Source: Felis catus (taxonomy: Eukaryota). From it: a stretch of DNA of 64,000 bases. Of this stretch, positions 7,486 through 28,200 are shown one piece after another. Each line of letters begins with the position of its first letter. Position 1 is the first letter of the stretch. Under the pieces are notes generated by a model. It worked only from the letters and a program-made list of their open reading frames with translations. It had not been told where the DNA came from and made no database searches. The stretch is from the NCBI RefSeq assembly GCF_018350175.1, contig NC_058381.1, positions 40,238,001-40,302,000 of the forward strand, given 5' to 3'. The translations under genes and the position numbers were made by a program.

Positions 7486-10400
7486 TTAGAGAGGGCAGGT
7501 GGCTGGGACACAGCTTGGACGAAGGACACAGGCAGCAGCCGTAGAGCAGGGATTGATGGGGAGTCTGCAGTGAGAGAGAGAGAGAGAGAGAAAGAGTTAG
7601 ACACAGGGAGTACAAAGATGTCTCAGTGATGCATGGAAGAGGCGAGACCAAAATGGACAAAAGACAAGTCTGCCACCAAGTCACAGAATGCAATGAAATT
7701 TGTGTGAGTAGTTCCTCTTCCAGTGCTGTGTCTCTCCGTGTCCAAGAGTCCTCTAGGGGGACTTGGTTTAGGAACCAGCTATCATTTATGTAACAGTCAA
7801 TCAACAGTGCGATCCACATACACCAGGAGAGTTGAGCACATCACTAAGCCAGTGTGGACAGGGAGGCTTGCTCTCCATGCTGATATCTCTTTCCACAACC
7901 ATGTCAGTTATCTGTGAGGAACTGCTTTATAGTCAGGTATGTGTCTTGGTGAGAAATTCACTCTATCACACGTACTTGCAATCCTCGCTCTCCAGAAGTT
8001 TCCGGTACGTGTTGATCTCGCACTCCAGCCGGGCCTTGACGTCCAGCAGCACCTGGTACTCCTGGTTCTGCCGCTCCAGGTCAGCCCGGATCTCAGACAG
8101 CTGCTCCTCCACGTCGCGGATCAGGATCTGCATCTGGGCCAGCTCGGTGCCGAAGCGTGCATCCGACTCACACAGGGAGTTCTGCAGACAGTCCTTCTGT
8201 AGTGGCAAATAACCGGGTAAGAGACCGAGGTGTCCCAAAATTCAGCAGTAGGAATCATGGCCAACCTCACCATGTCATAGGACATGCCCAGAACTCTGGA
8301 GAAATCGCTGCCCATGTCACCATGACTTTTCACAAAATTCTACCTGGAGGAAGTGTTCATCCCTGTATTCCCAGGACCTGACCAAGTAGACACCCAGTGA
8401 CGTCTTGTGGAACGAAGGCCTGAATCACCACCCTTTATTGTAAAGGAAGTGGAGTTGGCTTTTTAAAGAACCAGTTTTGGGGGTCAAACCAACCTTGATG
8501 GCGAGGCATCTCCCCCAGGGAGAGAGGGACCCAGCCCCTGAGGTCTGATTGTTAGTGGGACTGATGAGTGGGACTTCTAAGACACGCTGCTGCCAGGCCG
8601 TGGCCCGTGGCACCAGCAGCACGGTGAGGGCAGAAGACCGTACCAGGCTGTGCTGGGCCTGAAGCTCCACCTCCAGGGCGTTCACTGTGCGCCTCAGCTC
8701 CAGGATCTCCGACTGACAGCACTGCAGCTCCTTGGAGCAGGACATGTCCTGCTTGCTGATGCTCTCGGACTGAAGCACAAGGGCACACAGACATCACATC
8801 ACCTCCCTGCCCAGGTGGAAGCCGGGGGGCCCTCCCTGCTCCGAGGCGGCGCCCTCACCTGATCTTGGAACCACTGCTCCACGTCGTTGCGGCCGGTCTG
8901 CATCATGGCCTCGTAGTGGCACCGCATCTCGTCCAGCACCCTGCTCAGGTCCACGGTGGGCTCCGCGTCCAGCTTAATCTGGAGCTTGTCCCCCAGCTGG
9001 CCCCTCAGGATGTGGACTTCCTGTGGGCACAGAAGGACCAACACTCTGAGTGAAGAAAGGGCTTTGGACAGAGCAGATGGCACCTGAACCCCTTCTCTGA
9101 TGAGCAGCACGAGGGGTGAGCCCACTTGTGCACGATGTGAAAGATCTTGTCCAGGATCCACTGGGAAGAGCCCAGTGGGTCGCCTTCCTAAATTCGCAAG
9201 GCAAACCTTTAGAGACAAGGAACCCCTCCACCGGCCCCACCACCTCTGCTACGTCCTACAGAGTCAGCCTGACTCCCACACCCAGATCAACCCCTCATCC
9301 TGATGCCAACTGAGCCTGGCTTCTAATCCTACAGCCACAGGGTGGGCGGTGCTCCCTTCTCTGCTCAGTGCCCTCTCCCATGGGTCTGCAGCCCCAAGCC
9401 CAGACCTGCTCGTGGTTGCTCTTGAGGCAGAGCATCTCCTCCTTCAGGGACTCCTGCTGGGCCTCCAGGTCGGCCTTGGCCAGGCTCAGGTCATCCAGGA
9501 GCTTGTGCATCCCACACATGTCTGCCTCCACCACCTGGCGTAGGGACAGCTCACTCTCGTGCCTTCCAGGACAGGAGATGAAAGGTCAGCAGGATGACAA
9601 GGACAGCCCCTTTCAGCTGCCCGCAGTTTCCATTTCCTTCACCAACTTGGATCCTCATTTCCTTGGTTAATCAACATTCACTGTGTTGGATCCTGTACCT
9701 ACAGAACTCATTGTTGGAAGAAGTATCATTATGCCCACTGGATGGAACTACATGGGAAACTGTGGCTCCGAGAGAATAAATGGAGTATCCAGGATTGTAT
9801 ATCTTGGTTAATAGTAGATACATGGATTCACCCTAAGTGGTCAAATTAACGCAGTATTCATTCTGCTATAAAGGAGTCATTTAGCTAGGAAAAAGAATAG
9901 CTTGAAAGTAAGCCTTCTGGACCTACAGTTTTCTAGTTTACCCCTTGGATTAATTATTTCAGATGATTTTTATGCCTTTCTCATTCATTCAATTGCAACT
10001 CTTGATACCAAAAAGCTATAGTGACAATTCTTCCCACTCATAAATTTAGCAAAGAGTCAGTGAATCTGTCAAAGACCAATGAACTGAAAGTTTATTCTTG
10101 CAATGATTTGATTTTGTTTCTGGCTATAACACAAAACCTTCTTATCTTCTAGATGGGGAGAAAATGACATAGGACCTGACCCATCTAGATGATTCTTCCT
10201 CATTTTGTTTCAATGCTTTTGTTCACTTTCAACCATTTCTGGGTTCTAGTCAGTAACCACTTTTTAACATCTACTTTGGGCCAGTACCATGATGGGCACC
10301 TAGAAATAAAACAGAAGAGGAGTCACTCTGAGCCTTCTTCCAGCCCTACTTACTTGATTCTAAAGTCATCGGCAGCCAGCTTAGCATTGTCAATTTGAGT

Positions 10401-25241: not shown

Positions 25242-28200
25242 TCAATGCTTTGACCTCAGCGCCTTGATTCTCTACCTACTGTTGTACTGTCATCCTGTTA
25301 CTCAGCTGTTGGTTTACCATTAAGAGTTCCTCGCCTCATTAAAGGAATGTTGATGAATTTGAGGTGCCTCCTGGCTCTTTGATATCAGGTTGTCTGTTGA
25401 TGGGAAGCAAGAAACTTTTATTATTTTTCAAAGAACAAAATCCTTTTAGCCATCAGATGTTCATACCTTGACTAGAGCTGATGTGCCCACACTGAAGGCA
25501 TGACCGTTCCTGTTGGTCATAGGATAAACCCTATGAGAACAATGGTGCCCACCTGGGTTAAGACTAAACCAGCCTTCTCTATCCAGGGAAGAGCCTGGTT
25601 TGGGGCTGATAGATGTTATGGGTTTTGGTTATCAAAAACTTCACATTTCTTCTTTCTTCTCTTTGCCTTTCAAACTCACTTTGAGGGGCAATAAGACTTT
25701 GGTAAGTCCATTCATTCAACATGCATCTCGTGGCACATCCCATATGCCAGGCACTATGCCATGCCCCTGTCATACAACTAGTTAAGCCTGACATAGTTCC
25801 TGTCCATCAGGAAGCAACCCAAACTTAGGTAGCCATGGATGTTTTAAATAAGTTGTCTGCAAAGATCATCAGTACAAGGGTGACCTTGAACCTTGCCTGA
25901 TCTGGACCAGGAAAGATAAGCTCAATAAGCCAGAAACAAGCAAAAATGAACAATAACCTTTTTACGTTCCAGGGCTGTGAAACTCAATGGACATTGAGTT
26001 ATCAGAGTCAGTATGATGGTTTTTCCTGCCCTACTTCCTTGATTCTAAAATTCTTTACTGAGCACTTAACATATGTGTTAGGGTCTTATCAACAATATTG
26101 TTTAATCCTTCCTACCATCCTATAAGGTGGATATTCTTACCATAACTTTACAAAAGAAAGAAAAGACATTGAGGACCAGAGACGTGAAGTTGTTTTTCTA
26201 AGATCAACCCCCTTATAAAGTGGCAAAGCCTGTTGTTAATATCAGTTTCTTTCAACTCCAGAGCCCATTCTTGTTCTCTTCACCTTGCACACCCCCCAAT
26301 AGGGAAATAAGTGTGTCATTGCCAGAATTAAGAAGGATTATAAGGTCTAGAAATTGTACAAGAAGTTGAAATTAAGAGATAAAATAAGAATTTAACATTC
26401 TATATTATTCTTTGTGTCTCAGAAAATACAAGTGTTGAGATACCAGAACAATAGGGCAAGGCTTCTCCAAGGACCATGCAGAAGGATGCCCAGGAGAAAT
26501 CTCCATCCCCAAAATTATTATACTACATCTCATACCCCACTAGCTCTTGGCATCAGAGAGCCAAGACTGCTGACTACCAAGGTCCCAAAAGTTCTCTCTT
26601 AAAATTTGTGGCAGGAGATAGATTGCCCCCTAGGACTGAGAAAGACCTAATATGGAGTAAAACTAAGTTATCAGAGTCAGTATGGGGGTTATAACTAAAT
26701 CTTCGTGAAAATGAATATTTTCCAGTGCTCTAAGCATTGAGCAAAAGCAGAATAGACATCTCTATAGGGACCAGATCTGTATATATGAAACAAACTATTG
26801 GAGTTCTATCAAGAAGAAATACAGAAGTCTGAGACTTCTGTTCAGAATGGGTTTCCCAGGAAGGGTAACTAGTGGTCAGCTCTGTCCTAAGGGTTACTCA
26901 GAGCTCATCAATGAATAACTCTTTATAGACATCATAATTAGAAGACCTCACCAGGCCAGCCCATCTCATCCTTCAGAGGCCTTTGGGTGCGATCTGCATA
27001 GGTTACATCTTCAAACACTGCTTTGTTACTCTCCTCTGTCTCATCACATAGCAACAAGCTTCTCTATAAACCAGGGAACTAGACTTATAAAGTCATTTCT
27101 TTTGACCCGCTAAATCAAATCTATCTTTTGACTTTATTCTCTGGCAGGATTCATTCCATTAGCTAAAACTCATGATTTCCTCCATCTCAAAATACACAAC
27201 ACTTGTTACGGCATAACATCGCCGCTGAGGCTTTCTATGTCGAGGTGACGCTCCTCTGTACTGAAGCTTCATCATGCATGGTCCTGGCTTGGGCTTCAAC
27301 CGAGTGTGTTGTTTTGCATAATGACACTGATGTTGCGTGTCTCTTTGTAAAGTTGCTTGGTTCCACTGAGTTGCATTTTTCTCAAAGGAGGTGAGTGTGG
27401 GGTGAAGATCCTTGCCCTCATATCTAAGACTGCCTTTCTTCCCAACCCTTTAAAAAGAGTCCCTGTGGCCCTTGGTAACCAAACATGAGCCAGAGTCAGT
27501 GACAAGAAGTGGCGAAGACGGAGTGTGAGAGACAGAAGCCTGTAGCCCTCCTTTACTCACCTGTGTGCACACAGTTCTCTCACTGAGTCTGACTTCAAAA
27601 ATACCAGTCTCTAGAAGCAGGAAGCCTACTTCAGATGGAAAGGCAGAGCTGTGGTCTTGGGATGCTGTTTTCAAACATGGTGGTGTTACAGACGGATGCA
27701 TCTCAACCAGCGGGAGGGAAAGGTGTGGACCTGTAGACTAGCCCCCAGGAATCGTGCCTAGCCCGCAGCCTACTTTTTCTACGCTGTGGCTCCTGCTGCA
27801 GGAAGATGCATGAGGCATCCAAGGGTTTGTGCCCTGTAAGGGAACCTCACCCATCACATAATATAGGGGGTGCAAACGTCGAAGACAGCTCCTGTGTGTG
27901 GAGCCTCATACTGCCGTGTCCTCTGGGTGTTAGGAAGTGGTGCCAGAGAAAACTGTAGGTCAAGAAAATCATGAAGACTCTTAAAAGAAGAGTAATAAAT
28001 AATAATAATAAGTAACAAATGATCTATTATTCTAGGTATGCAACTCTTGAGGCTTTGATGAATGGAAAAAGCACACTTTTATTCAAATTAGATAGGATTT
28101 TACCATCAGGTTTCTTAGATCCAGCTCCATAATCCACAAAGTTTATCCACTTAATCAATGTTCTTTTCCTCCTACCATGACATCATCTAGACACTAGGAG

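Follow-up and report, generated by a model that had tools for sequence, protein, structure and literature searches.

Concerted evolution has been reported among keratins for K31/33a/33b/34, K6a-c and K81/83/86 (PMC4195889, PMC5540548), and in primates repeated conversion has left SIGLEC11 and SIGLEC16 near-identical in one part and private in the other (PMC5701461; here and below, statements on the literature refer to the available parts of each source). The subject of this report is a locus in Felis catus that invites comparison with both, namely the hair keratin genes KRT37 and KRT38, which lie in a window of 64,000 nucleotides (the whole stretch of DNA analysed, NC_058381.1 40,238,001-40,302,000 of assembly GCF_018350175.1; coordinates are those of the window unless one of the stretches L001-L005 is named), together with their neighbour KRT41. 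The three genes form a mosaic of near-identical patches and private segments, in which KRT41 is a third partner, and inside the patches the sequences group by species. The best explanation is very probably recurrent interlocus gene conversion among KRT41, KRT37 and KRT38, running in both directions and in several mammal lineages.

KRT37/38/41 stand outside the concerted groups described in the available parts of PMC4195889 and PMC5540548, and are not among the 19 groups tested in the latter. The KRT31/33/34 group shows a like pattern in this genome: the four genes at these positions (L002-L005) share ~750-bp tracts at 94.7-97.6%, L003 and L005 having 368 bp of exon 1 in common at 99.2%. Compared with KRT31/33/34, KRT81/83/86 and KRT6, KRT37 and KRT38 share longer tracts, which extend into the proximal promoter, whereas the tracts shared with KRT41 comprise nothing but exons and a single intron of 89 nt. 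SIGLEC11 and SIGLEC16, in turn, are paired receptors with opposite signalling, whereas KRT37/38/41 are three genes for structural proteins. Previous accounts explain the locus in other terms. PMC4195889 treats the extra gene in dog and in microbat as independent duplications, PMC10026720 suggests that KRT37/38 arose from a recent primate duplication, and PMC5573215, which names the dog gene KRT41, does not contain the word "conversion" in its available text; nor do the available parts of PMC2064177, PMC8733776, PMC2935094, PMC12523852, PMC7488140 and PMC4236322 tie KRT37/38/41 to conversion. No report of conversion in these genes was located in the literature covered; the papers that first described the human cluster and the KRT41 pseudogene fall outside that coverage and may have remarked on the similarity. 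The conversion mechanism itself is textbook.

All three genes fit type I hair keratins, with seven coding exons of which exons 2-6 measure 83/157/162/126/221, and they map between the KRT31 group and KRT32 as tandem paralogs in one orientation, 12-14 kb apart, with an order common to human, dog and Felis catus:

7486-11120, minus strand: KRT37, 439 aa, intact, with GT-AG introns and an open frame
11120-10629, 10436-10354, 9562-9406, 9020-8859, 8769-8644, 8196-7976 and 7564-7486, minus strand: coding exons of KRT37
21287-25126, minus strand: KRT38, 457 aa, intact
25126-24635, 24442-24360, 23575-23419, 23033-22872, 22782-22657, 22208-21988 and 21419-21287, minus strand: coding exons of KRT38
L001:9220-3950, minus strand, in a flanking stretch outside the window: KRT41, 439 aa, intact

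The name KRT37 is based on gene order, exon and intron sizes and a by-eye match of tail and 3' untranslated region (UTR) to dog KRT37; in KRT38 both the 133 nt of coding sequence (CDS) in exon 7 and the length of 457 aa are the same as in dog KRT38. KRT41 was located when the exon 4 region was searched against the genome, which gave an additional 99% match beginning ~4 kb ahead of the window. The gene has the position, the 429-nt exon 1 and the long intron 1 of dog KRT41, features that constitute the likeness to the described dog KRT41/human KRT41P (PMC5573215, PMC2064177), while its N-terminus, exons 2-3 and tail agree by eye with the dog KRT41 mRNA.

KRT37 and KRT38 share two tracts at an offset of ~14.0 kb, which appear in self-BLAST as blocks of 1,700 columns (tract 1) and 1,079 columns (tract 2):

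7965-9663: KRT37 copy of tract 1, from exon 3 to exon 6 plus ~100 nt of intron 2, 98.4% to the KRT38 copy
21977-23676: tract 1 in KRT38
10318-11395: KRT37 copy of tract 2, covering exons 1 and 2 with intron 1, the start of intron 2 and upstream sequence, 97.3%
24324-25402: tract 2 in KRT38

The first-pass annotation, made from the letters of the window, had described two such tracts at 98-99%, and cores taken close to its limits indeed reach 98.9% (18/1,624 differ) and 98.5% (14/952 differ). It was equally right that the introns are as alike as the exons, introns 1, 3, 4 and 5 showing 14 mismatches in 1,113 positions, and that the proximal promoter is near-identical, tract 2 taking in 275 nt upstream of the ATG. 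The tracts are contiguous and lie far above the identity of their flanks, non-coding and silent sites included, and at the block limits sliding identity drops from 97-100% to 33-63%, the alignment background. The copies differ by 26 and 28 substitutions, with three-way patterns. In tract 1 the mismatches are clustered (longest perfect run 468 nt, p 0.0006 and p 0.005), a distribution that fits several events of unequal age. At a neutral rate of 1-2e-9 per site per year, a divergence of 1.3% would put the mean age of the tracts at roughly 3-6 million years. As regards GC-biased conversion, the GC content of tract introns is 0.51-0.69 against 0.39-0.46 outside, yet unconverted KRT41 introns reach 0.54-0.63. 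Among the best candidates for two genome queries, there was no fourth tract copy above 90%.

Between and beyond the tracts, and in two islands inside them, the two genes are private or diverged:

9664-10317: private core of KRT37 intron 2, single-copy in the genome, with its KRT38 counterpart at 23677-24323
12633-13242: unconverted upstream homology block, ~65% to 26728-27387 (672 columns, E 1e-61)
10371-10404, minus strand: divergent island within exon 2, with 7 of its 34 nt different
7987-8022, minus strand: end of exon 6, 5 KRT37/KRT38 differences, KRT37 being equal to KRT41 at 4 of the 5

The intron 2 cores of KRT37 and KRT38 give one weak local match only (158 columns, 60%, E 1.7e-4), and intron 6 and the 3'UTR give none between the two genes, as had been proposed when these parts were called unalignable; exon 7, placed in the same class, is diverged yet alignable (66 matches, 13 mismatches, 54 gap columns). 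A global-alignment z-score for intron 2 (z 21) was dropped as evidence on the core in favour of the local test, because the global alignment took in the tract ends. A repeat insertion as the barrier in intron 2 was also considered and rejected: the KRT37 core, the sole core searched, matched itself alone, which does not imply rarity. The duplication that gave rise to KRT37 and KRT38 must be old, since the 672-column upstream block is only 65% identical. The mismatch clusters in exons 2 and 6, formerly taken for tract edges inside exons, turn out to be islands, beyond which the similarity persists for ~35 nt of intron 2 and for ~11 nt of intron 6. The island in exon 2 encodes V..QI in KRT37 and I..QV in KRT38, with the identical assignment in dog (by eye), and it has resisted conversion, because the residues of each gene are the same in both species; it may have been spared through selection or through the adjoining diverged intron 2. 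At the end of exon 6, EINTY is found by eye in KRT37 and KRT41 of Felis catus and in KRT38 and KRT41 of dog, the remaining gene having EIATY in each case, and the difference looks more like a KRT41-type patch than like an unconverted remnant.

KRT41 shares three sub-tracts with both genes:

10619-11014: 3' part of exon 1, 396 bp, matching L001:8782-9177 at 95.7% (KRT37); KRT38 copy 24625-25020, 96.0%
8642-9037: exon 4-intron 4-exon 5, matching L001:5415-5810 at 97.0% (KRT37); KRT38 copy 22655-23043, 97.2%
7969-8201: exon 6, matching L001:4831-5063 at 98.7% (KRT37); KRT38 copy 21981-22213, 97.0%

KRT41 introns 1, 2, 3, 5 and 6 have zero local matches to KRT37/KRT38. In exons 2-3 KRT41 is 19-22% from KRT37/38, a distance like that of seven other genes of the cluster (18-25%), whereas in exons 1, 4, 5 and 6 it is 1-5% away, the same seven genes being at 13-35%. 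Third-position differences between KRT41 and KRT37 number 10/27, 16/53, 0/54, 3/42 and 0/73 in exons 2-6 respectively (exons 2-3 against the remainder, Fisher p 2e-18), and the clustering extends to all sites (permutation p <=0.0002). An all-versus-all comparison of 11 regions, with segments of at least 80 bp, found no segment of at least 90% between other genes of the cluster and KRT37, KRT38 or KRT41. At the start of exon 4, KRT37/38 have KRT41-type codons (VHI) where dog KRT37/38 and horse KRT37 have VS, and three codons past VHI KRT41 is of KRT37/38 type; exchange between KRT41 and KRT37/38 therefore ran both ways, the direction of individual patches being one that we infer from three species. 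The earlier proposal of an old duplication followed by conversion is thus retained, but its restriction to the pair gives way to the participation of KRT41, and the recent homogenisation to recurrent events in several lineages.

The comparison with other species combines intron lengths of dog, human and horse from the exon table in supplement 8 of PMC5573215 with letter counts by eye against mRNAs from supplements 4 and 5 of the same source, which cover the exons of dog and part of those of horse. Each entry below gives the lengths for KRT37/KRT38/KRT41:

Intron 1: Felis catus 192/192/1423; dog 191/191/1523; human 187/186; horse 183/-/1067
Intron 2: Felis catus 791/784/979; dog 858/790/1028; human 827/801; horse 808/-/963
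Intron 3: Felis catus 385/385/356; dog 368/369/327; human 343/344; horse 364/-/326
Intron 4: Felis catus 89/89/89; dog 86/86/86; human 78/80; horse 88/-/88
Intron 5: Felis catus 447/448/358; dog 377/375/376; human 481/177; horse 485/-/382
Intron 6: Felis catus 411/568/746; dog 387/666/1493; human 380/551; horse 410/-/730

In introns 1, 3 and 4 the paralog lengths agree within each species and move together between species; that of intron 6 tracks orthologs (KRT37 380-411, KRT38 551-666). The length of intron 5 is common to two genes in Felis catus, to three in dog and to none in human, and the extent of the tracts is therefore lineage-specific. The exons concur. The shared part of exon 1 and exons 4, 5 and 6 contain 17, 13, 6 and 14 sites, respectively, that group the three genes of Felis catus against the three of dog, such that ~50 sites group by species and at most one by ortholog; exon 3 of KRT37/38 adds 8 species-grouping sites and no ortholog-grouping ones. 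In exon 4 orthologs differ at 18/162 positions, paralogs at 1/162 in Felis catus and 0/162 in dog, and over codons 8-54 of this exon horse KRT37 differs from horse KRT41P at 3/141 and from KRT37 of Felis catus at 18/141. Outside the shared segments the order is reversed: KRT41 differs from its dog ortholog at 2/83 positions in exon 2 and 21/157 in exon 3, against 16/83 from KRT37 and 34/157 from its neighbour in Felis catus. Tails and 3'UTRs likewise follow orthologs in dog, human and horse, whereas inside the tracts both the letters and the intron lengths go by species. The grouping predicted by the first-pass annotation, by species inside the tracts and by ortholog outside them, is thus borne out by intron lengths in four species and by the dog counts, and the duplication is placed before the compared speciations by gene order, by the sizes of the exons and of intron 6, by tails and 3'UTRs, and by the 65% upstream block. 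Two shared peptides, which had been adduced as non-consensus residues of both copies, fare differently: EKVTMQ is encoded by dog and horse genes too and therefore belongs to the family as a whole, giving no indication of recent conversion, while MMQTG is confined to Felis catus among the three species and is present in all three of its genes.

In the mechanism that we propose, recombinational repair would use a neighbouring gene as template, copying patches of 0.2-1.7 kb among the three genes in both directions, independently in each mammal lineage, and continuing wherever homology remains. Between KRT37 and KRT38 the exchange zone would comprise the proximal promoter and two further parts with their introns, one running from exon 1 to exon 2 and the other from exon 3 to exon 6, whereas exchange with KRT41 would be limited to exon 1, exon 4-intron 4-exon 5 and exon 6. 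Intron 2, intron 6, the tails, the 3'UTRs and the N-terminus and exons 2-3 of KRT41 would have escaped. The outcome is three proteins with near-equal coil 1A and coil 2 and with different tails, KRT41 differing in coil 1B as well. Selection may act at the tract limits.

The published alternative, recent lineage-specific duplication of KRT37/38 in primates and of extra genes in dog and microbat independently (PMC10026720, PMC4195889), accounts readily for high paralog identity within species. A recent duplication should, however, copy whole genes, and here the copies cannot be aligned in the intron 2 core, in intron 6 or in the 3'UTR and are 65% identical in the upstream sequence; dog orthologs are matched by the tails and 3'UTRs, as well as by exons 2-3 and the N-terminus of KRT41, and the three genes keep an identical order in human, dog and Felis catus, all of which makes this history highly improbable. 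It is also very improbable that a collapsed or chimeric assembly has placed one rod in several genes. Near-identical repeats of 1-2 kb are prone to such error, but the copies carry variants of their own (the 26 and 28 substitutions), those of exon 2 fitting the correct dog orthologs, and the artefact would need to recur in four references, given that dog, human and horse show the same architecture; moreover, 20 of 24 listed runs, from 10 studies, contain 0.86-0.90 of the KRT37-region words, which shows presence, not phase. That purifying selection alone holds exons 1, 4, 5 and 6 alike could be argued from the KRT41-shared stretches, which stop ~10-17 nt from exon edges, and from exon 3 of KRT32/35/36, likewise 94-98% alike. 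Yet silent sites and intron 4 are homogenised too, orthologs are ~11% apart in these exons, silent identity is higher within than between species, and the horse pseudogene KRT41P carries horse-specific letters in common with KRT37, so that we give this explanation almost no credence.

Repeated unequal crossing-over, with hybrids built by expansion and contraction, would yield an equal grouping by species. KRT38 is absent from horse and both genes are absent from mouse (PMC4195889, PMC5573215), and deletions therefore do occur at the locus. Many paired crossovers would nevertheless be needed to produce 3-5 patches that are kept apart by private sequence while gene order is conserved, and we regard this route as very unlikely, the patches being more probably the product of conversion than of repeated double crossover. 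Several points weigh against conversion as we have framed it. For any single patch, sequence alone cannot separate it from a double crossover; the tract evidence comes from a reference assembly; and the species grouping consists of hand counts and published intron lengths. In addition, the core of tract 2 carries no signal of age heterogeneity (p 0.2), third-position clustering between KRT37 and KRT38 in the coding exons alone is not significant (p 0.09-0.16), and the human evidence consists of intron lengths only, among which those of intron 5 (481/177) do not match.

Other features of the locus deserve mention. The shared 275 nt upstream of the ATG contain a TATA box and a putative LEF/TCF-like site, and a putative HOXC13-like motif is intact in KRT38 and disrupted in KRT37 by one substitution (11330 vs 25336). 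KRT37 stops at an early TAA (7486-7488), also present in dog, and the next ~30 nt still resemble the KRT38 C-terminus. Its exon 7 CDS measures 79 nt in Felis catus, 82 in dog, 94 in horse and 109 in human, and these lengths, with the TAA common to dog, suggest a truncation of the tail in carnivores. Horse KRT37 mixes in exon 2 one KRT38-type and one KRT37-type residue, and in this species without KRT38 the gene might be a KRT38/KRT37 fusion produced by unequal crossover. Between KRT38 and KRT32 a lone, degenerate exon 6 is left over from a type I hair keratin (31900-32300), with no accompanying remnant of exon 1, 3, 4 or 5 in 26-39.8 kb. By its position, the remnant may correspond to human KRT43P. 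KRT43P has been reported missing in dog and horse (PMC5573215). The neighbouring genes are named from their order, KRT35/36 additionally from a by-eye match to dog mRNAs. Exon 3 of KRT32, KRT35 and KRT36 (42418-42586, 51604-51768, 61620-61788) is 94-97.6% identical pairwise, their other exons being below 90%, for which exon-limited conversion or strong constraint are possible reasons.

The orthology and history of three hair keratins are thereby corrected, recurrent conversion among old genes explaining them better than the published recent duplication. In carnivores, short reads and most peptides cannot distinguish KRT37, KRT38 and KRT41, and the locus provides a compact test case for the minimal homology that sustains conversion and for the reasons why some segments escape it. 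More tentatively, and with slightly less than even confidence, we suggest a long-lived three-way conversion system of KRT41/KRT37/KRT38 across placental mammals, in which KRT41 exchanges on exon-sized homology (230-400 bp) alone and selection maintains the differences in the tails, in coil 1B of KRT41 and in two residues of exon 2. Were this so, the published "recent duplications" of KRT37/38/41 would be misreadings. Conversion between KRT41 and its neighbours bears, finally, on the dating of the human loss of KRT41, a standard example of human-specific gene loss (PMC2064177, PMC2935094): under such a three-way system, rate-based dating of the human pseudogene may be confounded, because its sequence would not evolve independently of KRT37/38.

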